The notes: generated by a model not told the origin, from the sequence alone. 32,000 bases of DNA from Lebetimonas natsushimae (GCF_002335445.1 NZ_BDME01000006.1:123528-155527); one strand, 5' to 3'. Shown: positions 989 through 32,000, numbered from the stretch's first letter. Program-made: numbers and translations.

Positions 989-1015
989 TTTTGAAAAATT
1001 AAATAAAGGAAATTG

Positions 1016-4211: not shown

Positions 4212-4276
4212 TTTCTTTTTTTTATCTAGAATAATAAAAAGTATTTTATGCAGTTTTCTATTGATTATTTAAAAAG

Positions 4277-4305: not shown

Positions 4306-4334
4306 TTCATAAAATATTTAAGGAGAATATATAT

Positions 4335-9374: not shown

Positions 9375-9383
9375 AGGCTGCGA

Positions 9384-10019
9384 ATGAATTTTAAAGATAT
9401 ATTTTTATTTAAAAATTTAGAAGATAAAGATATTAATGAAATTAAAAAATTTTCAATTGTAAAAAAACTCAAAAAAAATGATATTGTTTTTTATGAAAAA
9501 GAAGAACCTAATTATTTACATTTACTTGTAGAAGGAACGGCAAAAGTTTATAAAGTGGATAACAGGGGAAATGAGCTTATTATTCATAAATTTTATCCAC
9601 CTTCACTCATAGCTGAACTTGCAAGTTTTGAGAAAATTCCTTATCCTGCAAACTGTGCGATGGAAAGTGACGGGATTGTTATAAAAATAGAATTTGAAAA
9701 GTTTAAGAAATTTTTAAAAAAAGGTGATGTCTGTTTGTCTGTAATGAGCTCTCTTCTTAAAAAGATGAAATATTTAGATGGAATTATTCAGGATAATCTG
9801 ATTTTAGATACAACTACAAAAATAGCAAAATTTATTTATGATAATCCGGAAGCTTTTGAAGATTTAAAACAGCATTCTATTGCAGCAATTTTGAATATAA
9901 AACCGGAGACTCTTAGCAGAAAATTAAAAATATTAAAAGATTTGGGAATTATTGAAAAAAAAGATAATAAGTTTACAGTTAAAAATAGGGAAAAAATAAA
10001 AGAGCATTTTAATTGGTAG
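9384..10019 (+). CDS. Crp/Fnr-family transcriptional regulator (HcpR/NssR-like, no FNR Cys cluster)
   Basis: 211 aa. The N-terminus is a cNMP-binding-like barrel (LLVEGTAKVYKVDNRGNELII). The C-terminal HTH has the FNR-type recognition helix PETLSRKLKILKDLGII (E-x2-S-R). There is no N-terminal cysteine cluster. Confidence 0.85.
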   Translation: MNFKDIFLFKNLEDKDINEIKKFSIVKKLKKNDIVFYEKEEPNYLHLLVEGTAKVYKVDNRGNELIIHKFYPPSLIAELASFEKIPYPANCAMESDGIVIKIEFEKFKKFLKKGDVCLSVMSSLLKKMKYLDGIIQDNLILDTTTKIAKFIYDNPEAFEDLKQHSIAAILNIKPETLSRKLKILKDLGIIEKKDNKFTVKNREKIKEHFNW

Positions 10020-10392
10020 TGGCACCTACCATATTAAAAAATCCTGCTGTAACTGTATCCATTGTGGCTATATGGTTATGAAGCCAGGGGATAAAATGTT
10101 CTTTAAAATATTTTTCCATTTTTTCGTAATTGTTTAAATCATTTCTTAATTCGTATAATTCGTTTAAAATTTTATCATGTTCCATTTTATGAGGCATTTT
10201 TGCAAAAAAATTATATTTTTCCATAAGTTCTTGTTCAAAAGAAAAATGATTTTCAACATCTTTTACAAATTCTTCATAAACTTCTTCAAGAGGCTCTTTG
10301 TGCTCAATTGCTTGTAATAATTTTTCCAAAATTTCAGCTTCCCTGTTATGTACTTCATTCATTGGCTCAAATGCAACTTGGTTTAATTCCAT
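10009..10392 (-). CDS. Bacteriohemerythrin (single-domain di-iron protein)
   Basis: 127 aa with the full hemerythrin ligand pattern: H15, H-x3-E (NHFSFE), H-x3-H (HKMEH) and H-x4-D (HIATMD). An AAGGAG RBS lies upstream of the ATG. Confidence 0.88.
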   Translation of the reverse strand: MELNQVAFEPMNEVHNREAEILEKLLQAIEHKEPLEEVYEEFVKDVENHFSFEQELMEKYNFFAKMPHKMEHDKILNELYELRNDLNNYEKMEKYFKEHFIPWLHNHIATMDTVTAGFFNMVGATTN

Positions 10393-10411
10393 ATAAACTC
10401 CTTTTTTAATG

Positions 10412-10453
10412 ATTATAATTTAATAAAGAGTTTTAAGCATTGATTTAAATCAA
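10412..10453 (-). promoter_or_regulatory. FNR-type box TTGATTTAAATCAA plus a -10 TATAAT: predicted class-II activator-dependent promoter of the hemerythrin gene
   Basis: A perfectly self-complementary 14-mer lies at 10440-10453. On the minus strand it is followed by exactly 22 nt and then TATAAT (complement of 10412-10417). The hemerythrin ATG is at 10392. Confidence 0.6.
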
Positions 10454-10488
10454 TTTTTGTTAAAATTTTTAAAATAAAAGGAGAGTTA

Positions 10489-10719
10489 ATGAAAAAATTA
10501 TTTCAGCATATTTTTCAATTCTTCATTTTTAACAGATATCTATCTCTAAAAACACAATATTTTTTAATTATAATGTTAGGTTTTGGATTAATTTTAATAT
10601 TTAAAGTAAATTTTGATGCAGGATTGTCTTTTATTTTAGCAGCAGTATTTTTTATGATTATTTCTTATTTGAAAATTTATAATAATGATTTATATGAAAA
10701 AATAATGGATATGTTTTAA
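10489..10719 (+). CDS. Small hypothetical membrane protein (two predicted TM helices)
   Basis: 76 aa. AAGGAG at 10478-10483 lies 5 nt before the ATG. There are two long hydrophobic stretches. No family was recognised. Confidence 0.5.
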   Translation: MKKLFQHIFQFFIFNRYLSLKTQYFLIIMLGFGLILIFKVNFDAGLSFILAAVFFMIISYLKIYNNDLYEKIMDMF

Positions 10720-10726
10720 AAAAAAA

Positions 10727-10752
10727 GAAAAGAATTAAGAAGCTAATTCTTT
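10727..10752. terminator. Candidate bidirectional hairpin between the convergent small ORF and hcp
   Basis: AAAAGAATTA (10727-10736) and TAATTCTTTT (10743-10752) form a 10-bp inverted repeat around a 6-nt loop. An A-run lies on the left, which reads as a T-run on the minus strand after hcp. The stem is AT-rich and overlaps the hcp stop codon, so it is weak. Confidence 0.3.
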
Positions 10753-12162
10753 TCCAAAGTCTTTGTGGATATCTCCAGATATTACTCCAAGATTGAAGTT
10801 TTCTACCAAGAAGTTTACGATATCTTCGTTTGCAAATTGTGGTGCGTTTGGTCCGATATAAATATCTTTTACTCCAAGGCTTAGTAATGCAAGTAAAATA
10901 ATAATTGCTTTTTGTTCCATCCACATTAGAGCAATTGATACCGGTAATTCATTAATATCTTCAATTCCTAAAGCCTGAGCTACTGTCATTGCGATATGAA
11001 CTGCACCGTTAGAGTCGTTACACTGTCCAAGGTCAATATATCTTGGAATGTCAGTTCCAGGTACTGTTCCAAAATCTACATCGTTGAATCTGAATTTTCC
11101 ACAGCTACTTGTAATAATAATATGGTCTTTTGGAACTGCTAAAGCTAATTCTCTATAATAATTTCTTTTTCTTCCAGGTGCGTCACATCCTGCGATAACC
11201 CATACTCTTTTTAATTTTCCTTCTTTTATTGCATCAAGAACTTTTGGTCCGAATGCCTCAAGAACAGTTTTGTAGTGATGTCCTGTTACGATTTTTTCAT
11301 CACTGTCAAACCCGGTGATATCAGGCAAGCTTAAAGTATGGTCAATTAATGGATCAAAATTGTCATTTTCTATTTTTTTGGCACCCTCAACACCTGTAAT
11401 TTTATAAGTGTATAGTCTATCTATATAATTTTTAACTTTTGGTGATTTTTCAGGCGGAACGATACAGTTAGTATTTACAACACAAGTTCCCTGCCATTTG
11501 GAAAATACATCTGTCTGGTCAAACCATGCTTTTCCGATATTTCCTTTTAGGTTTTTGAATTTTCTTAAATGAGGATATCCGTGAGCCGGTAACATTTCTG
11601 AGTGAGTATATACATTTATTTTATCACTAAGACCTCTTTCTTCTATTCTTTTTAATAATTTTTCAAGCATATCAAGATTATGTCCTGATACTAAAATACC
11701 TTTGCCTTCAGCTTTGTTTTGAGTAACTTCTACAGGTGTTGGTATTCCAAGGGCTTTTGTATGCATATCGCTAAGTAAATTCATAACTTTTACTCCGGCT
11801 TGTCCAACTTTCATAAGTTGAGCAATATGTTCATCAAAATTGAAGTTTACGTTTGTAAGAGTGAAATATAATGTTTCACTGTTTACATCATCCACTTCTT
11901 TTAATGTTTTTCTTGCTTCTTCATCTCCAACTTCTTGTACTAATTCATTCGCATGTTCTCTGTATGCGCTAAGACCTTTTAGTCCGTAAATCATTAAATC
12001 CTGAAGTCTTGATTTTGTAGCAGTTTTACCACAAACACCTTTGCTCTCTCCATGGCTACCACATCCACCAGGTGCACTCATTTCACATTGCCAGCATAAA
12101 AACGGTAAATCGCAAGCCTGTTTTTTAGTTGTTTCTTCTTTTTTTCCGAATAGTCCAAACAT
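10735..12162 (-). CDS. hcp: Hybrid-cluster protein / hydroxylamine reductase (short form)
   Basis: 475 aa. It has the N-terminal Cys cluster CWQCEMSAPGGCGSHGESKGVCGK and Hcp-type motifs along its length (VNTNCIVPP, VIAGCDAPG, DLGQCNDS, MWMEQKAIIILLALLSLGV). An AAGGAG RBS is present. Confidence 0.93.
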   Translation of the reverse strand: MFGLFGKKEETTKKQACDLPFLCWQCEMSAPGGCGSHGESKGVCGKTATKSRLQDLMIYGLKGLSAYREHANELVQEVGDEEARKTLKEVDDVNSETLYFTLTNVNFNFDEHIAQLMKVGQAGVKVMNLLSDMHTKALGIPTPVEVTQNKAEGKGILVSGHNLDMLEKLLKRIEERGLSDKINVYTHSEMLPAHGYPHLRKFKNLKGNIGKAWFDQTDVFSKWQGTCVVNTNCIVPPEKSPKVKNYIDRLYTYKITGVEGAKKIENDNFDPLIDHTLSLPDITGFDSDEKIVTGHHYKTVLEAFGPKVLDAIKEGKLKRVWVIAGCDAPGRKRNYYRELALAVPKDHIIITSSCGKFRFNDVDFGTVPGTDIPRYIDLGQCNDSNGAVHIAMTVAQALGIEDINELPVSIALMWMEQKAIIILLALLSLGVKDIYIGPNAPQFANEDIVNFLVENFNLGVISGDIHKDFGKELAS

Positions 12163-12294: not shown

Positions 12295-15200
12295 ATGGAA
12301 GCTATTTATAAAAACAGATGCCCTAACTGTGGAGGGAATATCAGTTCTGAACGTTTGGAAATTGGACTTTTTTGCGAAAAATGTATGGATATCAGTGAAG
12401 ATAAATGTAATGTAAATTTGATAAATTATAAAAAATTCTGCGTTGCAGATGAAAAATTAGAAAAATTTAATTTGTTTTTTAGGGAAAAAGTAGGGCAGGA
12501 CCTTAGCCCGATTCAGAGAATGTGGGCAAAAAGATTTTTTTTAGGGAATTCTTTTGCGCTTTTAGCGCCGACGGGAATAGGTAAAACAACATTTGGTTTG
12601 TTGCTTGCAGCATTTGCAAAAAAAAGTTATATTGTTTTCCCAACAAAACTTCTGGTATTACAGGCTCTTGAAAGATTTAAAAGCTGGGGTGTTGAAGTAC
12701 TTGCATACACTGGTAAAAAAGAGGAAAAAGAAAAAATTGAAAAAGGTGAATATGATATTTTAATAACAACCACCCAGTTTTTATATAAAAATCATGAAAT
12801 AATAAATAAAGATTTTGATCTGGTTTTTATAGATGATGTGGATTCTATTTTAAAATCTGCCAGAAAAATTGATATCGTTTTAAAACTTTTAGGAATAAAT
12901 GAAAAAATAATAAATACTGCATTAGAACTTATAGAGAAAAAAGATTATGTTAATTTAATGGAATTAAAAATTGTAAAAAAAGGTAATTTAATAGTATCTT
13001 CTGCTACTGCAAATCCAAAAAGTAAAAGGGTGCTTTTATTTAAATATCTGCTGGGATTTGAAGTTAGCAGGCCAAATTTATCTCTTAGAAATATAGAAGA
13101 TGTCTATGATGAAACATATTCATACGAAAAAGCCATGAAATATATCAAAAAATTAGGAAGCGGCGGGCTTTTGTTTTTGCCTGGGAATGAAACCAAAGAT
13201 AAACTAAATGAATTTATAGAATTTTTAAACACTGCTGGAATTAAGACATATTCTTATGAAGAATTCAACGAGCATGTCGAAGAATTTAAAAGGGGTGAAT
13301 GTGTTTTTGCCGGTTTTGCAAGTTACAGAAATCCTCTTGCGAGGGGAATAGATTTGCCTGAGAGTGTAAGATATACGCTTTTTGTCGGGGTGCCGAAGAT
13401 TGAATTTAAATTAAATGAAGAAAACTATAAAGCGCTTTATTTTATTTGCTTAGTTATTTATCCACTTTTAATAAAAAAACTAGAAACTAAAGAGATTTTA
13501 ACTTTTCAAAATTACATTAATACATTAAAAAGATATGCTTTTTTGCCAGTGCTTCATCCAAAAGTGGAAGAAAAATTAAAAATGATAAAAGAATATGTAA
13601 CTAACTTAATAGAAACATACAGAATAGAGATAAAAAATTCTCCGGAAGTCAGTTTTGACGGGGAAAAAATAATAACGGCGGATATTACAGGTTATATTCA
13701 GGCAAGCGGCAGAAGCAGCAGGTTTTATAACGGACATCTTACAAAAGGTTTGGCTCTAACACTTATAGATAATGAAAAAGCCTTTTTTTCTCTTAGAAAA
13801 AAACTTAACTGGTATAGCAACATTGAATTTAAAAATATAAAAGAGATAAATTTAGACGAAATTTTAAAAGAAATTGATGAGAGTAGAAAAATAAAAACAA
13901 AAACAAATCTCAAAACTTCATTTGTGGTAGTTGAATCCCCTACAAAAGCAAAAACCATTTCTTCATTTTTTGGTAGACCCAGCAGAAGAATAGTTGATGG
14001 AGTCAGTATTTATGAGATATTACTCAAAGACAGGGTTTTGGTAATCACTGCTAGCATCGGACATGATTTTGATCTCTCTTATGAGGAAAAATGGGGTGTT
14101 AAGGATAAGTATATTCCAATTTTTAGAGTCTTAGAAAATAAAGATAAAATATTAAATGCCTTAAATCTTGCTTCTTATGAGGTTGATGAAGTTATTATTG
14201 CAACAGACCCGGACAGGGAAGGGGAAAAAATTGCATTTGATTTGATACTCAATAACAAGCCGTATAATTTAAATGTAAAAAGAGCAGAATTTCACGAAAT
14301 TACAAAATATGCATTTACTAAGGCACTTAATAATTTGAGATATTATGATAAAAATTTGGTTGCTGCTCAGTTTGTCAGAAGAATAAGTGACAGGTGGATA
14401 GGGTTTAATTTGTCATCTTATCTTCAAAATCTGCTTCATAATGCCCATCTTTCAGCCGGAAGGGTTCAGACCCCTGTGTTAAACTGGATTTGTGAAAGGA
14501 CAGAAAAATTAAAAGAGAAAATTTTTATTGTATCTGTTAAAATAAATGATTTAAAAATTGAGTGGGAATTTGAAGATAAAGAGAAAGCAGAAGGATTTTT
14601 CAATTCATTAAAAAATAAAATCGAGATTAAACTGCTTGAATCAAAAGAAGAAGATGTTTTTGAAAAACCTTTTAACACCTCTACTCTTTTGAAAGAAGCG
14701 GCAACTAAACTTCATTTTTCTCCCCAATATACAATGAAACTGGCCCAGGAACTTTTTGAAAACGGATTTATTACATATCACAGGACTGACAGTTTTAGAA
14801 TCTCAAACGTGGGTAAAAAAATTGCAAAAGAGTATATTGAGGAGAAGTTTGGAGAAGAGTATGTAAATTTGAGAAGTTTTGAAAGCGGCGGGGCACATGA
14901 GGCGATTAGGGCTACTACTTCGATGGATATGAATGAACTTAAAAGTTTTTTAGTTTTTAAAAATATAAATCTAACTTACAATCATTTAAAATTATATGAT
15001 TTGATTTTTAGAAAATTTATAGCTTCTCAGATGAGAGATGTGAAAGTTAAAAAAGATATTTTTAAAATAGTTGATAAAGAAGTTGATGTAAATACCAAGA
15101 TTTTGGAAGACGGATTTAATCTTGTTTATCCCATAAAAATTTATAATATTAAAGAAGGAATTTATCCTGTTAGTAAAAATATTTATCAAAAAAGTAAATT

Positions 15201-15507
15201 TCCTCCATATACTTATGCTGAGGTTATCGATGAAATGAAAAACAAAGGGATCGGAAGACCGTCAACTTATGCAATAACTGTAGAAAAACTGCTTGAGAGA
15301 AAATATGTGGTTGAAAAAAACGGATTTTTATTTGCAACAAAACTTGGATTTAAAGTTTTAGATATTCTAAAAAAACATCCTTTATATAAATTTGTAAGTG
15401 AAATATTTACTAAAACTCTTGAAGAAACTATGGATTTAATAGAAGAGGGTAAAAAAGATTATAAGTCGGAATTGATTAAATTGTATAATAATTTATTTAT
15501 TGGTTAA
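12295..15507 (+). CDS. rgy: Reverse gyrase (helicase-like domain fused to a type IA topoisomerase)
   Basis: 1070 aa. It begins with a zinc finger (CPNCGG ... CEKC). Helicase motifs follow: APTGIGKTT (Walker A), FIDDVD (motif II), SSATANP (motif III) and QASGRSSR (motif VI). The topoisomerase IA part has Toprim VVVESPTKAKTI, ATDPDREGEKIA and the catalytic-Tyr motif ITYHRTDS. Confidence 0.95.
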   Translation: MEAIYKNRCPNCGGNISSERLEIGLFCEKCMDISEDKCNVNLINYKKFCVADEKLEKFNLFFREKVGQDLSPIQRMWAKRFFLGNSFALLAPTGIGKTTFGLLLAAFAKKSYIVFPTKLLVLQALERFKSWGVEVLAYTGKKEEKEKIEKGEYDILITTTQFLYKNHEIINKDFDLVFIDDVDSILKSARKIDIVLKLLGINEKIINTALELIEKKDYVNLMELKIVKKGNLIVSSATANPKSKRVLLFKYLLGFEVSRPNLSLRNIEDVYDETYSYEKAMKYIKKLGSGGLLFLPGNETKDKLNEFIEFLNTAGIKTYSYEEFNEHVEEFKRGECVFAGFASYRNPLARGIDLPESVRYTLFVGVPKIEFKLNEENYKALYFICLVIYPLLIKKLETKEILTFQNYINTLKRYAFLPVLHPKVEEKLKMIKEYVTNLIETYRIEIKNSPEVSFDGEKIITADITGYIQASGRSSRFYNGHLTKGLALTLIDNEKAFFSLRKKLNWYSNIEFKNIKEINLDEILKEIDESRKIKTKTNLKTSFVVVESPTKAKTISSFFGRPSRRIVDGVSIYEILLKDRVLVITASIGHDFDLSYEEKWGVKDKYIPIFRVLENKDKILNALNLASYEVDEVIIATDPDREGEKIAFDLILNNKPYNLNVKRAEFHEITKYAFTKALNNLRYYDKNLVAAQFVRRISDRWIGFNLSSYLQNLLHNAHLSAGRVQTPVLNWICERTEKLKEKIFIVSVKINDLKIEWEFEDKEKAEGFFNSLKNKIEIKLLESKEEDVFEKPFNTSTLLKEAATKLHFSPQYTMKLAQELFENGFITYHRTDSFRISNVGKKIAKEYIEEKFGEEYVNLRSFESGGAHEAIRATTSMDMNELKSFLVFKNINLTYNHLKLYDLIFRKFIASQMRDVKVKKDIFKIVDKEVDVNTKILEDGFNLVYPIKIYNIKEGIYPVSKNIYQKSKFPPYTYAEVIDEMKNKGIGRPSTYAITVEKLLERKYVVEKNGFLFATKLGFKVLDILKKHPLYKFVSEIFTKTLEETMDLIEEGKKDYKSELIKLYNNLFIG

Positions 15508-22373: not shown

Positions 22374-22480
22374 TCCACTCTTTTTCTCCTTTTGTGTGTA
22401 AAAAATAAACACTCATTCATTAAATTTTCTTATATTTCTCAAAATATTTAATAAAAATTAAATTTATGTTTAAAATATGA

Positions 22481-25400
22481 ATGAATAATCATAAAGGAGC
22501 AGGAGTGGAAGGTGTAATTTTTTTATTTTTACTTATAATTTTCTCACTCAAGGTGTTTGCTTTAATAAACAAAGAAAACGTAAAAAGCTCGTTTATTATC
22601 GCAAGTGGTGCGGAAATTTTGTATCTGGGTGTGGCGCTTCTTGGCAGCAGTGCATTAAGCGCTGTAATTTTACACCTTGAATATCAGTTTGTATTTAGGG
22701 TTTTGGCTTTTTTGATGCTTTTTGAATTTTTTAAGTTTAAAAATTCTGTTAAACTCAGTGATTTGGCCGGAGTTGGATTTAACAAATGGGGTGTGATTTT
22801 CGGATTTTCAATATTTGGAAGTCTTGGAATTTCATTAATTACCTCAAAACAGCTTATATTAAATTCCATTACAGCTTCAGGAATGTTTGAGCTTGGATAT
22901 TTGATTGTGGCAATTAATATTGTTCAGGCAATTTATTTAATTTCTATTTTTGAAACAATTGTTTTCAAAAAAGGAGAAAGTTTAAAAAATATTTCTAATA
23001 AAATACTTATATCTGTTTTTACATTTGCAGGTATATTGGTCTTTTTACTTCCGCAGATTTATTTAATATTACCTGCAAAATTTAGTAATATCAATGCTTA
23101 TCATATAAGTTTTGATTTTAATTATCACGGTATAAACGGTGTTTTTGCATTACTTTTTGCTTTTATAATGTCAATGGTTTTTATTTATTCACTAGATTAT
23201 ATTAAAAAATATAAGGCTTTTTATTATTCTTTTTTGGCTATTTTAACACTTGCTTTAATTGAAATACCATTAAGCAGCAGTTTTGAGAGTTTTTATCTTT
23301 TCTGGGAGACTATGACAATTACTTCATATTTATTGATTATGCATTCAAGAAGTGACGAGTCAATAAAAGCGGCTAAACTTTATTTTGTTATGTGTATTGC
23401 CGGGGCATATTTCTTACAGCTTACATTTTCACATTTTTATTCTTTAGGAATAGAAAGTTTCAGTGAAATAGTAAATGTTTCTTTAACTGTTGCCGTATTA
23501 ATGTTAATAGGTTTTGGTGTAAAAGCGGGTATAGTGCCTATTCATCAATGGCTACCTGTTGCGCATCCTGCAGCACCAAGCAGTATTTCAGCCCCACTTT
23601 CTGGTATTTTAACAAAAGCGGGAATTTTTGGAATTATTGTTTTGGTTTATGTTTTAGGATTTCAAAATAAAATTTTTTCTTATTTATTAGTAACTTTAGG
23701 TTTAATTACACTTTTTTACGGAGAAATTAAAACATTATATGAAAAAGACATAAAAAGACTTTTTGCATATTCAACTATAGGGCAAATTGGTGAAATTGTC
23801 ACCGTTTTAGGCCTTATGAGCACTGCGGCATTAAGCGGTGCAATCTATCATGTAATTAACCATGCGGTTGTTAAAGATTTATTGTTTTTAAGTGCGGGCT
23901 TACTGATATTAAGTAGTGGAAGCAGAAATCTTGATGATTTGAAAGGAATAGGAAAAAAACTGCCGTTTTTAGCTTTCCCGTTGGGTGTTGGTGTTTTTGC
24001 TTTAAGTGCATTTCCTCCGTTTGGAAATTTTAATTCAAAATTTTTAATGATATACGCAGCTGCTGAGCAGAATAATTATATTGTTGCATTTTCCCTAATA
24101 ATTGCTGGACTTATAGGTTTTGTAGCGATGCTGAGAGTGTTTAGGTATATTTTTTTAATGAATCCACAAAGGGAATTTTCAGAAGTTAAAGGAATAAAAG
24201 TAATAGCTGTATATCTTTTAGCTTTTGTTTCATTACTGCTTGGTATTTTTCCTCAGAGCGTTATTGATTTTATTGCAGCAGCTATAAATTCTACGTTAAA
24301 AGTTAATGTTCATTTGCCTCATTTTATATTACAGTTTCCGTTAAGTGTTTTAGTTATGATAATAGGGGCAATAATTGTTTACCTGTTTGGAAAAACAAGT
24401 AAAACAGCCGGAATCAGTGCTGCTGGATTTTCATTTTTAGCTCTTTTAACAGTATTTGCTGATAAATTCAGTTTTGGCAGCTTTTTTGCAGGTTTGGTTT
24501 TATTTATGGCAATTCTAAATTTCCTTTTTGCCGCAAGATATATGGACCATTCCCATAAATCATACAGATTTTTTGCCAATTTTATGATAATGATTGTCGG
24601 AATTTTGGGTGTGGCTTTGAGTGAAAATATTTATTCAATGTTTTTTTACTGGGAAATAATGGGCGGATGGGCGTTATATATCGCTCTTGTGCATGAAGAA
24701 GATGCATACTCAATTCAGGAAGCTACAAAATATCTGTTATACAATTATGCTGGTGCCGGTGTAATAATGATAGGTTTAGGTATTGTAATGCAATTTGGAA
24801 ATAGTATTGAAATAATAAAACATATTCCTCTTACAAATGAAATAATCTTTGCTTTGGTTTTATTAACTGTTGGTTTCTTAGCAAAAGCGGCCCAGCTTCC
24901 TGTAAGAATTGATTATCAGATGCACCCAAAACCGGCTCCAACTCCTATAAGTGGGTATATCTCTTCTGTTATGCTAAAAACAGGACCTTTTATGTTTGTA
25001 ATGGTTATGTATTTGGCTGCTGCTGGTGTAAGTGCATCTAAATTGTTTGTGATAGATAGTATAGGACATTTTGCAGCTATTGTTGGTGTAATTACTATTC
25101 TTATGGGTGCGAGTTTCGGACTATTAACTAATTCCATGAAAAGACTTTTAATTTTCTTAACAGTGGGTGAAATAGGTTATATTTTTGCCGGCGTTTCTTT
25201 AATGACGTCCCAGGGGTTAGCAGGTGGGCTTTTGCATTTAATAAACCATATGTTTTTTAAAGATTTGCTATTTTTAAGTGCTGGGGCCATTTTTTATAAA
25301 ACCGGAATAGATTCATTAAATGATCTCGGGGGAATTGCTAGAAAAATGCCAGTTACTTTTGCCGTATTTATGATAGCTGTTTTTTCAACAGCAGGTGTTC

Positions 25401-25987
25401 CAATGTTTAGCGGTTTTGTCTCTAAATGGATAATCTATCATGCATTGATGTCAAAAGGATATGACTTTTTAGCTATCCTAACCATTCTCGGAAGTGTTAT
25501 GATTTTACTTGTATTTGTAAAATTTATGCACAGTGCATATTTTGGAAAAATAGACAAAAAATTTGAAAATATCAAAGATGTTGATTGGTATATGTCTTTA
25601 CCTATGATGATTTTGGCAATTTTAAACATTATTTTAGGAATATTCCCTTATTTTGCTTTAAAACCGATAAACTTAATAATTCAAAGTTTTGGATATAAAC
25701 AAATATGTATTTCATTAAGTTCAGTTTGTATTGGTGGTGATATTCTTAATTTATTCACACTTTCAATTTATACATTGTTGGCTATTGCAATAGGTTATTT
25801 AATGTTTGTTTATAACAGAAAAATCAGAAAAACGCATATTTTCCTTTCAGGTGTTAGGGATTTAAGTGAAAGGGAACTTCATATAAATGCCAAAAATTTT
25901 TATGAAAGCGTTACAGAACTTATAAAGACAATTATTTATTTTGTAAAAAAAATATTTGGATTGAAAGGAGGCTATGTTGAGCGCTAA
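22481..25987 (+). CDS. Group 4 hydrogenase membrane subunit with two fused NuoL/M/N-type antiporter-like modules (CooM/HyfB-like)
   Basis: 1168 aa, polytopic. Module 1: LFWETMT ... GVKAGIVPIHQWLPVAHPAAPSSISAPLSGILTKAG ... HVINHAVVKDLLFLSAG. Module 2: FYWEIMG ... LAKAAQLPVRIDYQMHPKPAPTPISGYISSVMLKTG ... HLINHMFFKDLLFLSAG. An alternative start, GTG 22505, lies 5 nt after AAGGAG (22494-22499) and may be the true start. Confidence 0.88.
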   Translation: MNNHKGAGVEGVIFLFLLIIFSLKVFALINKENVKSSFIIASGAEILYLGVALLGSSALSAVILHLEYQFVFRVLAFLMLFEFFKFKNSVKLSDLAGVGFNKWGVIFGFSIFGSLGISLITSKQLILNSITASGMFELGYLIVAINIVQAIYLISIFETIVFKKGESLKNISNKILISVFTFAGILVFLLPQIYLILPAKFSNINAYHISFDFNYHGINGVFALLFAFIMSMVFIYSLDYIKKYKAFYYSFLAILTLALIEIPLSSSFESFYLFWETMTITSYLLIMHSRSDESIKAAKLYFVMCIAGAYFLQLTFSHFYSLGIESFSEIVNVSLTVAVLMLIGFGVKAGIVPIHQWLPVAHPAAPSSISAPLSGILTKAGIFGIIVLVYVLGFQNKIFSYLLVTLGLITLFYGEIKTLYEKDIKRLFAYSTIGQIGEIVTVLGLMSTAALSGAIYHVINHAVVKDLLFLSAGLLILSSGSRNLDDLKGIGKKLPFLAFPLGVGVFALSAFPPFGNFNSKFLMIYAAAEQNNYIVAFSLIIAGLIGFVAMLRVFRYIFLMNPQREFSEVKGIKVIAVYLLAFVSLLLGIFPQSVIDFIAAAINSTLKVNVHLPHFILQFPLSVLVMIIGAIIVYLFGKTSKTAGISAAGFSFLALLTVFADKFSFGSFFAGLVLFMAILNFLFAARYMDHSHKSYRFFANFMIMIVGILGVALSENIYSMFFYWEIMGGWALYIALVHEEDAYSIQEATKYLLYNYAGAGVIMIGLGIVMQFGNSIEIIKHIPLTNEIIFALVLLTVGFLAKAAQLPVRIDYQMHPKPAPTPISGYISSVMLKTGPFMFVMVMYLAAAGVSASKLFVIDSIGHFAAIVGVITILMGASFGLLTNSMKRLLIFLTVGEIGYIFAGVSLMTSQGLAGGLLHLINHMFFKDLLFLSAGAIFYKTGIDSLNDLGGIARKMPVTFAVFMIAVFSTAGVPMFSGFVSKWIIYHALMSKGYDFLAILTILGSVMILLVFVKFMHSAYFGKIDKKFENIKDVDWYMSLPMMILAILNIILGIFPYFALKPINLIIQSFGYKQICISLSSVCIGGDILNLFTLSIYTLLAIAIGYLMFVYNRKIRKTHIFLSGVRDLSERELHINAKNFYESVTELIKTIIYFVKKIFGLKGGYVER

Positions 25988-26936
25988 TATTATTCATTTT
26001 TTAATTTTTCCTGGCGGATTATTTGCATTGTGTCTTGGTGTTTTTATGCTTTCCCTTGAAAGAATTGTGGTTGCTAGACTTCAGGGAAGGGTAGGACCTC
26101 CCATTTATCAAAATTTTATTGACGTAATTAAACTTTTCAATAAGGAAATTTTAGTTCCTAAAAATGCAAAAGAGGCTGTTTTTATTTATTCGCCTTTAAT
26201 AGGTTTTGCCGGAATGCTCGCAATGCTTTATTTTATACCAATTCCCGGTGTGTATGAAGGAACAAATGTAAACAGTGATTTAATAGTGTTAATCTATGTT
26301 ATGGCTTTACCTGCAATAGCTCATATATTGGGGGGAGGTGCATCAAGTTCCCCTTATGCCGCAATTGCAGTAAACAGAGAACTTAAATTAATGCTGGTGT
26401 ACGAAATGGTTTTTGTAATAATCTCTTTTAGCGTTGCGATTTATGTGGGAGGCGGGGATGCTGTGTTTTCATTAAAAAAGATAATGGAATATCAGCAGCT
26501 TCACGGAAGTTTTTTATTTGATTGGAAATTTTGGCCTGCAGTGATTGCTTTTGTTGTTTTTGTGTTAGCAACTTTGGAGTTGCCTCCTTTTCAAATAGCA
26601 CATCATAATGATGCCGATGTAATGGACGGATTTTTAATAGAACACAGTTCAATCCCTTTGGCTATTTATGAAATGACTGATGCGATGAAAATAATTTTGC
26701 TCAGCATAGTGTTTCAAATATTTTTCTTTCCTATAGCAATTACAGATGATTTAATTATAAATTTGATTTGGTTTATTTTAAAAACAGTGGTTTTTGTTAT
26801 GTTCTTTTCGTTTTTACATGCAATTCTCCCAAGTTTCAGAATTGATCAGGGATTTAAATTTTTGCTTATTGTGCCGACTGCATTGTCCCTTATTACATTA
26901 ATTTTAGTAATTTTGTCTGTAAAAGGATTAATATGA
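25974..26936 (+). CDS. Group 4 hydrogenase membrane subunit, NuoH/HycD/CooK-like
   Basis: 320 aa, polytopic. The N-terminal motif RLQGRVGPP is typical of NuoH/HycD. It overlaps the upstream gene by 14 nt. GGAGG lies just upstream. Confidence 0.88.
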   Translation: MLSANIIHFLIFPGGLFALCLGVFMLSLERIVVARLQGRVGPPIYQNFIDVIKLFNKEILVPKNAKEAVFIYSPLIGFAGMLAMLYFIPIPGVYEGTNVNSDLIVLIYVMALPAIAHILGGGASSSPYAAIAVNRELKLMLVYEMVFVIISFSVAIYVGGGDAVFSLKKIMEYQQLHGSFLFDWKFWPAVIAFVVFVLATLELPPFQIAHHNDADVMDGFLIEHSSIPLAIYEMTDAMKIILLSIVFQIFFFPIAITDDLIINLIWFILKTVVFVMFFSFLHAILPSFRIDQGFKFLLIVPTALSLITLILVILSVKGLI

Positions 26937-27361
26937 GTATTATTACAAGAAGTCCTTTTTTATTCAGGATAAATACAGGAAGCTGCAACGGATGTGATGT
27001 GGAACTTGCCACAACTGCTATGATTCCAAGATATGACGTTGAGAGACTTGGATGCAGATATACAGGAAGTCCTAAACACGCGGATATACTCCTGGTTACC
27101 GGTCCTATTACGGCAAGAAGTAAGCCGTATTTACTCGAAGTATTGGATGAGCTTCCAAATCCTTTTGTGGTGGTGGCAGTGGGAACATGCCCTACAAGCT
27201 GTGGGATTTTCAGGGATTCTTATTCAATAGAGGGACCGCTTGAGAGGTATGTGAAAGTTGATGTTAATGTGCCGGGCTGTCCGCCAAGACCACAGGCGAT
27301 AATTGACGGTGTTGCAAAAGCACTTGAAATCTGGAAAGAAAAAATAAGGAATCAAAAATGA
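26933..27361 (+). CDS. [NiFe]-hydrogenase small subunit, NuoB/HycG/CooL-like
   Basis: 142 aa. The ligands for a single [4Fe-4S] cluster are SCNGCDVE, GTCPTSCG and PGCPPRP. ATGA overlaps occur at both ends. Confidence 0.92.
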   Translation: MSIITRSPFLFRINTGSCNGCDVELATTAMIPRYDVERLGCRYTGSPKHADILLVTGPITARSKPYLLEVLDELPNPFVVVAVGTCPTSCGIFRDSYSIEGPLERYVKVDVNVPGCPPRPQAIIDGVAKALEIWKEKIRNQK

Positions 27362-27861
27362 GCGGATTTTTAAAAATTGCAATAAGGAATTTGTTAAAAG
27401 GACCTGTAACAGACCCTTATCCTTTTGGAAAAACGTTTATACCGAATAAATTAAGAGGAAAACTAAAAGTTGACCCTAAGGCATGCACAGCTTGCGGGAC
27501 ATGTGAGGAAGTATGTCCATCGGGTGCTATACATATTACAAAAAATGAAAATGTTTATGTTCATACCACATGGTATAACACCTGCTGTTTTTGCGGAAAC
27601 TGTGAGTTTTTTTGTCCGACAGGGGCTATAAAGCTTACAAATGATTTCCATACGGCAAATACCGAAGAGGAAAAATACCGTTTTACAACAGTAGCCCTAA
27701 TCAGCGAAATTAAATGTGAAAGTTGCGGAGAAATGTTTGTACCGGCAAGTGAGGCTTTATTAAAAAGGGCTTATCCGAATGTAAATGATACTATCAGAGA
27801 ACTTACAAAATTATGTCCTAAATGCAGGCGAAAAAAAGCGTTTGAAAGGCTTTATCAATGA
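27358..27861 (+). CDS. 2x[4Fe-4S] ferredoxin-like subunit, NuoI/HycF/CooX-like, with an extra C-terminal CxxC...CxxC segment
   Basis: 167 aa. The two cluster motifs are CTACGTCEEVCP and CCFCGNCEFFCP. The C-terminus adds CESCGE ... CPKCRRK. Confidence 0.88.
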   Translation: MSGFLKIAIRNLLKGPVTDPYPFGKTFIPNKLRGKLKVDPKACTACGTCEEVCPSGAIHITKNENVYVHTTWYNTCCFCGNCEFFCPTGAIKLTNDFHTANTEEEKYRFTTVALISEIKCESCGEMFVPASEALLKRAYPNVNDTIRELTKLCPKCRRKKAFERLYQ

Positions 27862-28373
27862 AAGAAACATTAAAACAAAAGATTATTGCTGAATTAAAAA
27901 ACAGAATTACGGGTGATTTTGATTTAAGAGATGAAAAAGATGCAAAAGGTAATATTCAAATCTGGTTGAAACTTTTTAACCGAAAAGACATTTTACATGT
28001 TGCCCAGGTTATTAAAGATTTTGGTGGAAGATGTGTGATTATAAGCGCATATAAAAAAGATGACCATCATGTGCTTGTGTATCATTTGGATATTGACGGA
28101 ATACTTATTAATGTCGAAGTGGAACTTTTTGATAATACAGTTGATTCAATAACACCTATTTTAGACAGTGCCAATTGGACTGAAAGGGAATTTAAAGAGA
28201 TGTTCGGAATAAAACTTGTAGGACATCCAAATCCAAAAAGACTGTTTCTTGATGAAAGTATAGCTGAGGGAATACTTGGGGAGTATATGCCACTTTCACA
28301 AGCTATGAATGGTGCGGCAACATGTTGTATGTGGGAAAAAATTGAAAGTGAAAGGCATAAAAATGAGCACTAA
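27858..28373 (+). CDS. NuoC (30-kDa subunit)-like hydrogenase subunit, CooU-like
   Basis: 171 aa. The NuoC-family motif is WTEREFKEMFGIKLVGHPNPKRLFL. ATGA overlap upstream. Confidence 0.85.
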   Translation: MKETLKQKIIAELKNRITGDFDLRDEKDAKGNIQIWLKLFNRKDILHVAQVIKDFGGRCVIISAYKKDDHHVLVYHLDIDGILINVEVELFDNTVDSITPILDSANWTEREFKEMFGIKLVGHPNPKRLFLDESIAEGILGEYMPLSQAMNGAATCCMWEKIESERHKNEH

Positions 28374-29442
28374 AATACCTATTGGTCCGTTTCATATAGG
28401 ACTTGAAGAACCTATATATTTTAAAATTGATTTAGAAGGTGAAACTGTAAAAAACGTTGATATGATAAACGGTTTTGTACACAGGGGAATCGAGTATCTT
28501 GCAATGCAGAAAAACTTTTTTCAAAATCTGATTTTAACTGAGAGGGTTTGTTCGCTGTGTTCTAACAACCATCCTTTCACATATGTAATGGCTGTAGAAA
28601 AAATAGCCGGTATTGAAGTTAGCAGAAGGGCTAATTACTTAAGGGTTGTGGCTGATGAAGTAAAAAGAATAGCATCACATATGTTTAATTTAAGCATGCT
28701 TGCCCATTTAATTGGTTTTCATTCTTTAATGACCCAGACAATGGAGGCAAGGGAAATTATGCAGGATATTAAAGAATCAATCTGGGGTAACAGAATGGAT
28801 ATGAGTGCCAATACCATAAGCGGTGTTAAGTATGATTTGGATGAAGGTCAGATTGAATATATTTTGAAAAGGCTTGACGAACTTGAACCCCAGGTTGATG
28901 AAATAATTGATATTTATTTTAATCATAAAATTGTAAAAGCAAGAACCGTGGGGGTTGGAGTTTTACCAAAAGAGGACGCTTTACGTCTTGGTGTTACAGG
29001 ACCGACTGCCAGGGGTAGCGGTGTTAATAATGATGTGAGGGTAAAAGCCCCTTATGCCGCCTATGACGAATTAAAAGTAAATGTTATCTTAGAAGAAGGC
29101 GGTGATGTGCATGCGAGAACAAAGGTTAGATGGAGAGAGGTAAAAGAGTCAATAAGACTTGTAAGAGAGGCAATTACAAATCTGCCAGAAGGTCCTGTTG
29201 TGCTTGATAAAAGACCACATATTCCGGCAGGTGAAGCCGTTACCAGGTCTGAAGCCCCAAGAGGGGAGCTTATTTATTATCTTAAAACCAACGGTGCTCA
29301 AAAACCGGAGAGAATGAGATGGAGGGTTCCGACATATATGAACTGGGAAGCACTGAGGGTTATGATTCCAGGCAATAAATTAAGTGATGTTGCGGTTATT
29401 TTCAACAGTATTGACCCTTGTATTTCATGTACAGAAAGATAA
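28363..29442 (+). CDS. Group 4 [NiFe]-hydrogenase large subunit (NuoD/CooH/EchE-like)
   Basis: 359 aa from ATG 28363 (MSTKIPIGPFH...). Both Ni-Fe ligand motifs are present: RVCSLCSNNH and the C-terminal DPCISCTER, where the protein ends. The ORF-track start at 28309 lies inside the preceding gene. Confidence 0.93.
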   Translation: MSTKIPIGPFHIGLEEPIYFKIDLEGETVKNVDMINGFVHRGIEYLAMQKNFFQNLILTERVCSLCSNNHPFTYVMAVEKIAGIEVSRRANYLRVVADEVKRIASHMFNLSMLAHLIGFHSLMTQTMEAREIMQDIKESIWGNRMDMSANTISGVKYDLDEGQIEYILKRLDELEPQVDEIIDIYFNHKIVKARTVGVGVLPKEDALRLGVTGPTARGSGVNNDVRVKAPYAAYDELKVNVILEEGGDVHARTKVRWREVKESIRLVREAITNLPEGPVVLDKRPHIPAGEAVTRSEAPRGELIYYLKTNGAQKPERMRWRVPTYMNWEALRVMIPGNKLSDVAVIFNSIDPCISCTER

Positions 29443-29456
29443 ATAAAGGAGAATTA

Positions 29457-29978
29457 ATGGCTAATAAGTTTATTTTTGCAGATCCAAAAAAATGTATAGG
29501 TTGTTTAAACTGTGAGCTTGCTTGTGCAGCAAAACATATGAATATTTCTTTTGAAGAAGCATATGATTTGGCACTGAATGGAGAAGTTGAATTAATTCAT
29601 AGAAATACCGTTATTGAAATGAACGGATTAACCGCTCCAATGCAATGTATGCAGTGTGAAGATGCACCGTGTGTTGAAGCGTGTCCTATTGACATTATCA
29701 GATATGAAAACAATTATGTAAAAATTTATGAAAGTGATTGTATTGGTTGTAGAAGCTGTGCGATGGTCTGTCCTTTCGGTGCAATAACAATGGCTAAAAG
29801 TAATTCCACAAATGTAACAGGATTAGTTGCAATAAAATGTGATTTGTGCGGGGGAGAAGAAGGGAAACAGGCCTGTGTAAATATCTGTCCTACAGATGCG
29901 ATTGAACTTATAGATTATAATGAATATAAAAGAAGAAAACAAGAAAATGCTTTTGAAAGATTACATCAAGATGCATGA
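29457..29978 (+). CDS. Polyferredoxin electron-transfer subunit, CooF/HycB/HydN family (four [4Fe-4S] motifs)
   Basis: 173 aa from ATG 29457, which has an AAGGAG RBS. The cluster motifs are CIGCLNCELAC, CMQCEDAPCVEACP, CIGCRSCAMVCP and CDLCGG...ACVNICP. Confidence 0.88.
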   Translation: MANKFIFADPKKCIGCLNCELACAAKHMNISFEEAYDLALNGEVELIHRNTVIEMNGLTAPMQCMQCEDAPCVEACPIDIIRYENNYVKIYESDCIGCRSCAMVCPFGAITMAKSNSTNVTGLVAIKCDLCGGEEGKQACVNICPTDAIELIDYNEYKRRKQENAFERLHQDA

Positions 29979-30306
29979 ACTCTCAATCGTTCAGTCTATG
30001 ATGAAAATTATTGAAAAACATGCAAAAAACAGAGAAGTTGAAAGACTTGTGGTAAAAATAGGAAAAATGAGCGGAATAGAACCGTATTTTTTAAAAGAGA
30101 GTTTTGATTTTTTTAAAGAAGGCACTGTTTGTGCAAATGCCGAAATGGAAATAATAGAAGTTAATATAAAAATAAAATGTTTTGAGTGCGGAAGTGAGAG
30201 TGAAATAAAAGGTTTTGATTTCCACTGTCCCGTGTGTGGAAGTGAAAAAACAAAGATAATAAGCGGAGAAGAAATGCATATAGAATATATTGAATTAAAG
30301 GAGTAG
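29971..30306 (+). CDS. hypA: Hydrogenase nickel-insertion protein HypA
   Basis: 111 aa from ATG 29971. It has the N-terminal Ni-binding MHE motif (MHELSIVQ) and the zinc site CFECGSE ... CPVCGSE. It overlaps the preceding gene by 8 nt. Confidence 0.9.
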   Translation: MHELSIVQSMMKIIEKHAKNREVERLVVKIGKMSGIEPYFLKESFDFFKEGTVCANAEMEIIEVNIKIKCFECGSESEIKGFDFHCPVCGSEKTKIISGEEMHIEYIELKE

Positions 30307-30308
30307 TA

Positions 30309-31730
30309 ATGAAAAAACATTTTACAAGGGTTCCTAAAAAGATTCAGAGAAAAAGAGATGCAAATGAGAGAATAAATGATTTTGAACCTGTGTATATTGA
30401 ATTTAATGAAGAAGAGGCAGCAGAACAGGCTAAAAGATGTTTAACATGCCCTATTGATATTTTAAGAGGGCTTAACAGCGAGTTTGAATTTTGCAGAACC
30501 GGATGTCCTCTAAACAATTATATTCCACAGTGGATCAGGGAAGTAAGACGCGGAAATTTAGAAAAGGCGTTTGAGCTTAGCAATGAAAAATCACCTTTTC
30601 CAGAAATTATGGGAAGAGTTTGTCCGCATGACAGTCTGTGTCAGGGAAGCTGCGTTCTTTCTAAAACAGACCACGGAAGCGTCGCTATCGGAGCTATTGA
30701 GGTTTTTATAAGCGAAGAAGGGTTTAAAAGAGGATATAAACCTTATTACGGGGAGGATAAAAAAAGAAAAAAAAGAGTTGCTGTAATTGGAAGCGGACCT
30801 GCGGGAATGAGCTGTGCCACTTTTCTTTTAAGAGGTGGAGTAAATGTGGAAATGTTTGAAAAATCCGACAGACCCGGGGGACTTTTAACATACGGTATTC
30901 CAAATTTTAAACTTCACAAAGATGTTGTTTTTAGAAGATTCAAGTGGATGCAGGATGCCGGACTTAAACTGCATTTAAATACACCAATTTTAACCGAAAA
31001 AGATTTTGATAAAATTGTTAATGATTTTGATGCCGTGTTTATAGGTGTTGGTGCTCCAAGCAGCAGGGGCGCAAGAATGGAAAATGAAAATGCAAACGGA
31101 GTTTATCATGTTATGGATATTTTAACCCATGCCCAAAAAAGAGTGTTTAAAGATTTTGATGATTGTATATTAAAAGACAAAAGGGTAGTTGTAATCGGCG
31201 GTGGTGACAGTGCAATGGATGCGGTAAGAACAAGTGTAAGAAGCGGTGCAAAAGAGGTATACTGTGTTTACAGAAGAGATGAATCCAATATGCCTGGAAG
31301 TAAAAAAGAAGTTATAAATGCTAAAGAAGAAGGGGTTAAATTCAGATTTTATACAGCACCAAAAGCTGTAAAAATTGATGAAAACAATAATGTTGTAGGG
31401 ATAATCTGCCAAAAAACAGAATTAGGTCAGCCTGATGAAAGTGGGAGAAGAAGGGTTCAAATTGTTGAAAATAGTAATTTTGAAATTCCTTGTGATATAA
31501 TTATATTAGCGTTAGGCTTTGATACTGTTAAATTTCCTTGGTATGAGCATGCAGGAATTGAAACTGATAAATGGGGATGTCCTGTTGTAAATGAAAGATA
31601 TCAGACAACTAATAAAAAAGTTTTTGCAGGTGGAGATGCGATTAGAGGCGCAGATTTGGTTGTAACTGCTGCAAGAGACGGAAGAGAAGCAGCATACGGT
31701 ATATTAGAATATTTAGGATTAAAGGATTGA
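30309..31730 (+). CDS. GltD-like NAD(P)H-dependent iron-sulfur flavoprotein oxidoreductase (glutamate synthase small-chain family)
   Basis: 473 aa. The N-terminal Fe-S Cys motifs are [11 protein letters not shown]...CRTGCPL and [15 protein letters not shown]. The FAD and NAD(P)H Rossmann motifs are [14 protein letters not shown] and [20 protein letters not shown] lies 5 nt upstream. No gltB (large chain) gene is adjacent. Confidence 0.88.
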
Positions 31731-31731
31731 T

Positions 31732-32000
31732 ATGATACCGATTTATAAAAGCGATGTGGTTATAGTAGGGGCTGGGCTTGCTGGACTTGCGGCTGCAAGA
31801 GAACTTAGCAGGGCCGGTAAAAATGTGACGGTTCTTACAAAACTACATCCGTTGCGCTCTCATTCAGGGGCCGCACAGGGTGGAATAAACGCAGCTTTGG
31901 CTGATGATGACGATGTAGAACTCCATATGTTTGATACTGTAAAAGGAAGCGATTATTTGGCAGACCAGGATGCGGTTGAGCTTATGTGCTCACGTGCACC
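31732..32000 (+). CDS. Fumarate reductase / succinate dehydrogenase flavoprotein subunit, N-terminal fragment (3'-truncated by the window edge)
   Basis: [22 protein letters not shown] is the FAD Rossmann motif. [18 protein letters not shown] contains the His used for covalent FAD in FrdA/Sdh[23 protein letters not shown] is also conserved. There is no Tat or signal sequence. It starts 1 nt after the GltD-like stop. Confidence 0.9.

Follow-up and report, generated by a model that had tools for sequence, protein, structure and literature searches.

A Coo-type [NiFe]-hydrogenase operon without CO dehydrogenase genes in Lebetimonas natsushimae, and the GltD-like flavoprotein gene that follows it

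In the CO-dependent prototypes of the Coo hydrogenases, the polyferredoxin CooF docks CO dehydrogenase (CODH). Which protein exchanges electrons with such a hydrogenase when no CODH gene accompanies it? The question is raised by an operon of Lebetimonas natsushimae, a thermophilic, vent-dwelling obligate hydrogen oxidizer of the Nautiliaceae (Campylobacterota) that fixes CO2 by the reductive tricarboxylic acid (TCA) cycle. We analyzed a 32-kb stretch of its DNA (NZ_BDME01000006.1:123528-155527), called the window here, in which a first-pass annotation had placed a Coo-type hydrogenase operon ending at position 29978 and had left its electron partner open. The observation is real and accurate, but the feature was cut short, and its interpretation is partly supported. 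The gene string runs on into a gene for a GltD-like NAD(P)H flavoprotein (30309-31730), which had been overlooked, and into frdA (31732 onward). Because this flavoprotein gene follows cooF and hypA in 19 campylobacterotal loci, the partner question is less open than it had seemed.

Neither the cluster with its puzzle nor the idea that it makes NADPH is new: the former was published in 2009 and the latter in 2022. The Nautilia profundicola genes cooMKLXUHF (GAmH_1032-1026) were called "enigmatic" without CooS, and a supplementary figure of the same paper places them beside reverse gyrase and frd (Campbell 2009, PMC2628731). The orthologue in Nautilia sp. PV-1 was named "Hyd-3," an "eight-subunit enzyme," and was proposed to make NADPH via a co-expressed NADPH-binding subunit (Smedile 2022, PMC10092268). 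In Sulfurospirillum multivorans, SMUL_1307-1310 were described as CooH-like and "Ech-like," without membrane subunits or CODH (Kruse 2017, PMC5357620). HydDB defines group 4c as CO-respiring and recognizes a GltD-linked class only among [FeFe] hydrogenases. The window resembles the Nautilia clusters in family, gene order, the reverse gyrase upstream, the gltD-like and frd genes downstream, and the lack of CooS. It differs in belonging to another genus and in having fxsA directly upstream, and nothing functional sets it apart. We add three results: the cross-phylum linkage of the flavoprotein gene, its status as a paralogue, and a position of the hydrogenase outside the CooS-linked clades.

The hydrogenase and the missing CO dehydrogenase

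We called open reading frames (ORFs) in the window and scanned their products with Pfam and NCBIfam profiles. The hydrogenase genes all lie on the plus strand. The first, cooM (22481-25987), encodes a fused double antiporter-like membrane subunit of 1168 amino acids (aa). PF00361 matches it in two stretches (E = 9e-90), so that Pfam gives two Proton_antipo_M modules; its halves match the NuoM/L, HyfB/D, and MrpA/D models of NCBIfam, and it is 74% identical to the Nautilia lithotrophica orthologue. It is followed by cooK (25974-26936), encoding a NuoH-like membrane subunit (PF00146, NADHdh; E = 1.6e-55), and by cooL (26933-27361), encoding a NuoB-like small subunit for the proximal [4Fe-4S] cluster (PF01058, Oxidored_q6; E = 6.5e-28), with the cysteine motifs CNGC...GTCPTSC...PGCPP in its translation. 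The cooX product (27358-27861) is a NuoI/HycF-like 2x[4Fe-4S] subunit with two CxxCxxCxxxCP motifs, and it matches both the formate hydrogenlyase Fe-S subunit model NF009053 (E = 5e-28) and the NuoI model TIGR01971. A NuoC-like subunit is encoded by cooU (27858-28373; PF00329, Complex1_30kDa; E = 2e-20).

The [NiFe] large subunit CooH (28363-29442; 359 aa) matches PF00346 (Complex1_49kDa) and PF00374 (NiFeSe_Hases). It carries RVCSLCS near its N terminus and stops at DPCISCTER, with no C-terminal extension. In protein comparison, its identity is 100% with a protein of L. natsushimae and 93% with the N. lithotrophica large subunit. After it come cooF (29457-29978), for a 173-aa four-[4Fe-4S] polyferredoxin of the HydN/HycB/CooF type with four cysteine clusters in its translation, and hypA (29971-30306), for a nickel metallochaperone (PF01155, E = 1.9e-31). 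On NCBIfam profiles, CooF scores 108 bits for HydN and 125 bits for the N-terminal AegA domain; its best solved relatives are HycB3/HycB4 of the hydrogen-dependent CO2 reductase and HycB of the formate hydrogenlyase. The domains, the M-K-L-X-U-H order, the intact CxxC and DPCxxC Ni-Fe motifs, and the CooF-like ferredoxin and hypA behind them are all as the first-pass annotation had read them. The membrane arm, with two antiporter modules and a NuoH-like subunit, is predicted from these matches to translocate ions.

The genes are tightly packed. The junctions from cooM to hypA measure -14, -4, -4, -4, -11, +14, and -8 nucleotides (nt), in keeping with the overlapping or short junctions described before, and an AAGG/GGAG-like motif of the Shine-Dalgarno type precedes each gene at these junctions. 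Only 2 nt separate hypA from the gltD-like gene and 1 nt separates the latter from frdA, so the largest gap from cooM through frdA is 14 nt. The one wider gap in the gene string is a 107-nt AT-rich intergenic stretch before cooM (22374-22480, plus strand), a probable promoter region. It holds a sigma-70-like match at 22448-22476, to which we assign no promoter. Because the sites found by promoter and terminator scans were no commoner than in shuffled sequence, the transcript boundaries are based on gene spacing alone. The window holds a complete Coo-type operon that is probably read as one transcript. The most likely starts are ATG 28363 for cooH, which by comparison gives an N terminus (MSTKIP...) like that of its homologues, rather than 28309, and ATG 29457 for cooF rather than TTG 29418.

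Both CxxC pairs in the NuoD-like CooH, together with a NuoB-like CooL, place the enzyme among the group 4 (complex-I-related) [NiFe]-hydrogenases. The M-K-L-X-U-H order with a single fused double-antiporter CooM is that of the Coo type, and we found the same order in 54 related CooM-carrying loci. CooH is 55-63% identical to its CooS-linked homologues (about 540 bits; for example, those of Thermosinus carboxydivorans and Calderihabitans maritimus) and scores lower against solved MbhL (270 bits), HycE (235 bits), and Nqo4 (191 bits), with no EchE among the references. CooH is thus closer to the Coo enzymes than to MbhL, HycE, or NuoD, as the annotation had proposed for Coo over Ech, Hyc, and Mbh. 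Judged by these comparisons, the enzyme is clearly Coo-type, HydDB group 4c-like, at the family level.

We then placed the large subunit in a neighbor-joining tree (355 columns, 100 bootstraps, a single distant outgroup). CooH of the window clusters with the other Nautiliaceae enzymes (support 100); the next to join is the Hydrogenimonas enzyme (99), which is GltD-linked and has cooM. The enzymes of Caminibacter mediatlanticus, Sulfurovum, and Sulfurimonas, which have no membrane arm, form a neighboring group (90). The CooS/CooA-linked and Desulfovibrionaceae enzymes form a separate clade (95) that is joined to the Desulfobulbaceae (91). In this tree, CooH of the window does not nest inside any CooS-linked clade. 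The GltD-linked enzymes form a basal grade whose monophyly has a support of 8/100, with a root that is weak because of the one outgroup, and we make no claim of monophyly. The annotation had reckoned with a large subunit that falls inside a well-characterized subgroup. It does fall in a subgroup that has been described, but that subgroup is biochemically uncharacterized and lies outside the CooS-linked enzymes.

The window shares with the CooMKLXUH systems of Rhodospirillum rubrum and Carboxydothermus hydrogenoformans the six subunits, their order, the fused CooM, the lack of a CooH extension, and the presence of CooF and hypA. In contrast to them, it has no cooS, cooC, or cooA, and the GltD-like gene stands in the place of cooS. 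We found no true homologue of CooS, CooA, or CooC in the six-frame translated 32 kb (tblastn with queries from 22 CooS-linked relatives) and no FdhF or other formate dehydrogenase within the window, which agrees with the absence of cooS and fdhF noted before. The orthologous Nautiliaceae loci likewise hold no cooS, cooC, or cooA. Therefore, the coupling to CODH that goes with Coo-type hydrogenases (cooS, usually with cooC and cooA) is seen neither in the window nor in its orthologues.

The sole CooS-family match in the window was an ORF on the minus strand (10735-12162) that gene-family clustering had put with CooS. It is 21-23% identical to true CooS, and both NCBIfam and BLAST identify it as a hybrid-cluster protein (Hcp): it scores 492 bits on the hydroxylamine reductase model TIGR01703, whose cut-off is 361, and 58 bits on the CODH model, whose cut-off is 478. 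One "CooS" of another locus (L076) was likewise an Hcp. The 475-aa Hcp of the window lies together with a CRP/FNR-family regulator (9384-10019, plus strand) and a hemerythrin (10009-10392, minus strand), and this group (9384-12162) resembles a module for nitrosative stress or hydroxylamine. The regulator is unlike CooA; its best match to CooA has 22% identity (E = 0.004).

To see which partners accompany related enzymes, we scanned one genome per species and obtained 80 loci with relatives of the large subunit, with three further genomes reached by exact look-up. We then mapped the window proteins onto these loci and clustered all neighboring ORFs. About 22 loci have cooS nearby, usually with cooC and/or cooA; they belong to Firmicutes, Desulfovibrionaceae, Gamma- and Alphaproteobacteria, and one metagenome-assembled genome (MAG) of an uncultured member of the Campylobacterales (locus L013). 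Most of the CooS-linked loci, including all those of Firmicutes and Desulfovibrionaceae, have the order H-hypA-cooF-cooS, whereas cooF precedes hypA in the window, whose large subunit is also on a separate branch. In L013 and L057, cooF directly follows the large-subunit gene. L013 holds a genuine cooMKLXUH-cooF-cooS-cooC cluster (2264-12000). Its large subunit groups with CooS-linked enzymes of Firmicutes, consistent with horizontal acquisition, and a second group 4 large subunit of 474 aa is encoded 4 kb downstream.

These data bear on the idea that the window encodes a genuine CO-dependent Coo system whose cooS lies elsewhere in the genome. The gene order and the identity of 55-63% to the closest CooS-linked relatives speak for it, as do the cooS-cooC pair right after cooF in L013 and a report of CODH beside the hydrogenase in Sulfurospirillum sp. 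SCADC (PMC5357620). However, CooS, CooA, and CooC are missing from the 32 kb, and the L013 enzyme sits in the Firmicutes CooS-linked clade, apart from CooH of the window. In addition, no epsilonproteobacterial genome known in 2009 encoded CooS (PMC2628731), and Nautilia sp. PV-1 has no canonical CO-oxidizing enzyme (PMC10092268). We consider a CODH encoded elsewhere very improbable.

The GltD-like flavoprotein and its linkage to the hydrogenase

The gene that follows hypA (30309-31730, plus strand) encodes a 473-aa Fe-S flavoprotein (PF14691 and PF07992) with the GltD/NfnB architecture: a two-[4Fe-4S] domain at the N terminus and, behind it, Rossmann folds for FAD and NAD(P)H. Its translation contains the motifs CLTC...CRTGCP, GSGPAG, and GGGDSA...VYRRD. 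VYRRD after the second Rossmann strand is typical of the NADPH-binding members of this family, which would make NADPH a candidate nucleotide. The best solved relatives are GltD (6s6s_G, 351 bits) and NfnB (4ylf_B, about 300 bits). A true GltD is encoded beside GltB, and the window contains no gltB.

In the campylobacterotal lineage of the window, the order H-cooF-hypA-gltD-like was found in 19 of the 19 loci with readable downstream DNA (L013 apart). The genes cooM and cooK are kept in six of them: the window, four Nautiliaceae loci (L001-L004), and Hydrogenimonas sp. (L084). Twelve loci, from Sulfurovum, Sulfurimonas, Sulfurospirillum, Hydrogenimonas thermophila, and C. mediatlanticus, have no membrane subunits, and their cooL is often fused to cooX. 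In the remaining locus (L017), the available DNA ends too soon upstream for cooM and cooK to be judged. The frd genes lie downstream in the six Nautiliaceae loci only, C. mediatlanticus included, and the other 13 loci have no frd nearby. Because the cooF-hypA-gltD-like trio is kept with or without cooM/cooK and with or without frd, the flavoprotein gene tracks the hydrogenase core and not the membrane arm or Frd.

The soluble versions illustrate this. The CooLH clusters of S. multivorans and C. mediatlanticus (L015, L016, and L082) share with the window the L-X-U-H genes, the cooF-hypA-gltD-like trio, and the lack of CODH. They have no cooM/cooK and so should be soluble and free of ion coupling, whereas the window keeps the membrane arm. 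The C. mediatlanticus cluster (L082, ABCJ01000001.1, 8719-16911) reads cooL-X-U-H-cooF-hypA-gltD-like-frdABC and sits in the same proS...fxsA locus. In the tree, however, the large subunit of this cluster is placed with the soluble enzymes of the Sulfurovum type (bootstrap 90) and not with other Nautiliaceae, which suggests replacement or old paralogy rather than simple deletion of the membrane genes.

The hydrogenase-linked flavoprotein differs in sequence from canonical, gltB-linked GltD. A single chromosome of H. thermophila holds both kinds of gene, a canonical gltB-gltD pair with a 460-aa GltD and a hydrogenase-linked copy for 474 aa. In a tree of 118 homologues plus sequences of known context (50 bootstrap replicates), GltD proteins of the gltB type (459-465 aa) and of the hydrogenase type (469-484 aa) were split in 45 of the 50 replicates. 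The window protein falls in the hydrogenase-type group; by this tree, it and the gltB-linked GltD are different paralogues. We had also tried the above-cut-off match to TIGR01318 (the AegA-type "gltD_gamma_fam") as a sign of a non-GltD protein and dropped it, since the canonical GltD of H. thermophila scores higher.

Natural fusions suggest how the two modules may cooperate. CooF and the GltD-like protein together match the AegA profile in order (positions 2-158 and 193-654 of 659), and Escherichia coli AegA and YgfT are fusions of a HydN-like polyferredoxin to a GltD-like domain. By this Rosetta-stone argument, CooF and the GltD-like protein would work together. They are not orthologues of AegA: unlike AegA, they are encoded by two genes split by hypA, and they score 125 + 500 bits against a cut-off of 1003. 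AegA has been linked to formate-dependent urate use and not to hydrogenase. Clostridia and Geobacter have CooS-CooF-FNOR clusters. COG1251, to which their FNOR is assigned, is of the NADH-oxidase type, and we take it to be a different family from GltD. We therefore set these clusters aside as a homologous precedent; the analogy is functional only.

Proposed electron path and competing explanations

We favor, with somewhat better than even confidence, an ion-coupled H2:NAD(P)+ oxidoreductase that serves the reductive TCA cycle and has the GltD-like protein as its NAD(P)H module. In this scenario, the flavoprotein would take the place of CODH at CooF. Electrons would pass from the Ni-Fe site of CooH through CooL (one cluster), CooX (two), CooF (four), and the GltD-like protein (two plus FAD) to NAD(P)+, a path in which CooF is taken to link CooX with the GltD-like protein. 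The predicted cofactor sites form an unbroken chain of Ni-Fe, 1 + 2 + 4 + 2 [4Fe-4S] clusters, FAD, and a nucleotide site. Because the organism is an H2-oxidizing reductive-TCA autotroph, the enzyme most likely runs from H2 toward NAD(P)H in the cell. Through CooM and CooK, the reaction would be coupled to an ion gradient, which would let NAD(P)+ be reduced with scarce H2 or against a highly reduced NAD(P)H pool. When the NuoD-like site takes electrons from H2, the membrane arm would run in the gradient-consuming direction, as we infer from the reversibility of group 4 hydrogenases and complex I. The existence of relatives without the membrane subunits implies that the soluble part can catalyze a reaction alone, fitting H2 + NAD(P)+ = NAD(P)H + H+. 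The frdABC genes, if co-transcribed, would place fumarate reduction, a step of the reductive TCA cycle, beside the source of reductant. We start here from observed gene content, motifs, packing, linkage, and phylogeny; the attachment of the flavoprotein, its nucleotide, the reaction direction, and ion coupling are what we infer from them.

A hydrogenase joined to a GltD-type or NAD(P)H module is also found in [FeFe] group A2 and [NiFe] groups 3b and 3d (HydDB), for which H2/NAD(P)H interconversion has been proposed. Those enzymes are soluble and have unrelated catalytic subunits, whereas the core in the window is a complex-I-like group 4 enzyme with a putative ion-translocating arm.

Several points weigh against the oxidoreductase that we favor. 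Under standard conditions, the reduction of NAD(P)+ by H2 is slightly exergonic as it stands. It is therefore not obvious why an ion-coupled arm should be needed, and 12 related loci manage without one. The GltD-like protein is tied to the hydrogenase by co-location alone, and NCBIfam TIGR01318 cannot separate it from canonical campylobacterotal GltD. The N. profundicola orthologue was assigned as the glutamate synthase small subunit, apparently the sole copy in that genome (PMC2628731), and a role in glutamate synthesis, or a dual role, is possible in the Nautiliaceae. None of the enzymes of this lineage is known in purified form, and the S. multivorans homologue, which has no membrane arm, was untranscribed in all conditions tested (Kruse 2017, PMC5357620).

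For that untranscribed homologue, Kruse 2017 raised the idea of an evolutionary relic (PMC5357620), and the window genes might be judged in the same way as non-functional. However, all frames are intact and every metal ligand is present. The large subunit is 76-93% identical across the Nautiliaceae and Hydrogenimonas, and subunits of the orthologous Hyd-3, with the adjacent Frd, were detected in the Nautilia PV-1 proteome (PMC10092268). Of the readings weighed here, a relic is the least probable.

A more serious competitor is a ferredoxin-coupled, Ech-like enzyme, in which the gradient would drive the reduction of soluble ferredoxin by H2 for the carboxylations of the reductive TCA cycle. CooF would then be a docking wire only, and the GltD-like protein would belong to glutamate synthase or Frd. 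Campbell 2009 proposed ferredoxin coupling for the Nautilia group 4 enzymes and assigned the gltD-like gene to glutamate synthase (PMC2628731). The Desulfobulbaceae (L005, L006, L008, and L009) and many Desulfovibrionaceae offer a precedent, as their loci have MKLXUH and CooF with no recognizable partner gene. Because neither CooS nor a GltD-like gene is nearby there, their partner must be a diffusible carrier. In the campylobacterotal loci, however, the gltD-like gene follows cooF-hypA without exception, even in genomes that have a canonical gltBD, and Nautilia genomes already have a separate Ech (PMC2628731, PMC10092268). We regard ferredoxin coupling as unlikely.

The frd genes raise another explanation. 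The window ends within frdA (31732-32000, plus strand, the 5' part of a fumarate reductase/succinate dehydrogenase flavoprotein gene that runs beyond the window end), and for the DNA beyond it we used the N. lithotrophica, C. mediatlanticus, and MAG orthologues as a guide. The part of FrdA encoded in the window shares 90% identity with FrdA of N. lithotrophica, and that orthologue reaches 794 bits on TIGR01812. Behind frdA, the loci of N. lithotrophica and of three Nautiliaceae/Nautiliales MAGs (L001-L004) have frdB and an frdC for a 287-aa CCG-domain protein (HdrB/SdhE-like); frdB and a CCG-domain frdC also follow in the C. mediatlanticus locus. The N terminus of FrdA leads directly into the FAD-binding fold, and because it has no twin-arginine translocation (Tat) signal, FrdA should face the cytoplasm.

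In the five-subunit soluble NAD(P)H-dependent fumarate reductases of the Hydrogenobacter/Aquifex kind, FrdA, FrdB, and a CCG-type FrdC are joined by two further subunits, the flavoprotein FrdD (about 53 kDa) and the polyferredoxin FrdE (about 19 kDa). CooF and the GltD-like protein could be FrdE and FrdD of such an enzyme, and the hydrogenase would then merely share the operon or would pass electrons from H2 directly to fumarate. In the Nautiliaceae, the genes cooF-hypA-gltD-like-frdA-frdB-frdC form an uninterrupted row in which the gaps measure 1-14 nt, and they do so even where cooM/cooK are missing, in C. mediatlanticus. By size, the only property compared, Aquifex FrdD ("nox," 53.3 kDa) and FrdE ("dmsB2," 19.4 kDa) match the 473-aa and 173-aa proteins (PMC10052474), and the cytoplasmic FrdA without a Tat signal also fits. 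However, the 287-aa FrdC differs from Aquifex FrdC, which has 59.5 kDa, and outside the Nautiliaceae, 13 loci have cooF-hypA-gltD-like after the hydrogenase with no frd nearby. These 13 loci weigh against an Frd assignment as a general explanation, which we think quite unlikely, and the module may serve both enzymes in the Nautiliaceae.

An extension of this thought, which we offer as a long shot, is that the 12 Nautiliaceae genes cooMKLXUH-cooF-hypA-gltD-like-frdABC encode a single H2-driven machine, a quinone-independent, ion-translocating H2:fumarate/NAD(P)+ oxidoreductase. CooF would wire the hydrogenase both to the GltD/NfnB-like flavoprotein and to a cytoplasmic fumarate reductase anchored by the HdrB-like subunit. 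The flavin might split or merge electrons between fumarate, at high potential, and NAD(P)+ or ferredoxin, at low potential. Such a machine would show, in an organism alive today, how a group 4 hydrogenase can gain a nucleotide-binding input module, a step postulated in the origin of complex I.

Neighboring genes, other partner genes, and biological meaning

Upstream of the operon, the window encodes a reverse gyrase of 1070 aa (12295-15507, plus strand; TIGR01054, 1063 bits). Reverse gyrase is a hallmark of thermophiles and hyperthermophiles. In N. profundicola and C. mediatlanticus, it has the same neighborhood with respect to coo and frd. Farther upstream (7575-9374, plus strand) lies a gene for a UbiD-family menaquinone-biosynthesis decarboxylase of 599 aa (TIGR03701, 626 bits), with a C terminus that extends about 150 aa beyond the 433-position profile. 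Reverse gyrase apart, the remaining upstream genes are housekeeping genes, a ClC channel gene, and similar ones.

Other loci of the scan carry different genes beside related hydrogenases. In Hydrogenimonas and some Sulfurovum-type loci, the hydrogenase is closely preceded by a TetR-family regulator gene and by a conserved ORF, about 94-99 aa long, that matches no Pfam family (L084, 3001-4080; L086, 7521-8614; also L007 and L017). Adjoining them are genes for a Psr-like molybdopterin oxidoreductase (Mo subunit, 4Fe-4S subunit, and NrfD) and a carbonic anhydrase, in an arrangement that is identical for hydrogenase versions with and without the membrane arm. In Bacillus sp. DNRA2, Neobacillus sp., and Propionispira arboris (L029, L030, and L034), a CooF-like ferredoxin and an aldehyde:ferredoxin oxidoreductase (AFOR_N and AFOR_C, E = 1e-150) are encoded before MKLXUH (at about 700-3300), with no CODH in that place, an apparent further partner swap on the same hydrogenase chassis. 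In Alphaproteobacteria MAGs and Roseiarcus (L070, 11000-18000; similarly L073 and L080), a 957-aa Mo-hydroxylase of the xanthine dehydrogenase family with 2Fe-2S domains is encoded downstream of the large subunit. These loci also encode a protein of about 750-800 aa, whose family in L014 combines a GltD-like N terminus with a CCG domain, and they have no CooS.

The Nautiliaceae are model hydrogen-oxidizing autotrophs of deep-sea vents, whose reductive TCA cycle calls for NAD(P)H and low-potential reductant. The gltD-like gene that travels with the hydrogenase across the Campylobacterota is a clear and testable target. If the oxidoreductase that we favor exists, it would represent a type of respiratory or anabolic enzyme not characterized before, a complex-I-like membrane hydrogenase equipped with an NAD(P)H module, and it would offer an instructive parallel to the transition from hydrogenase to complex I.

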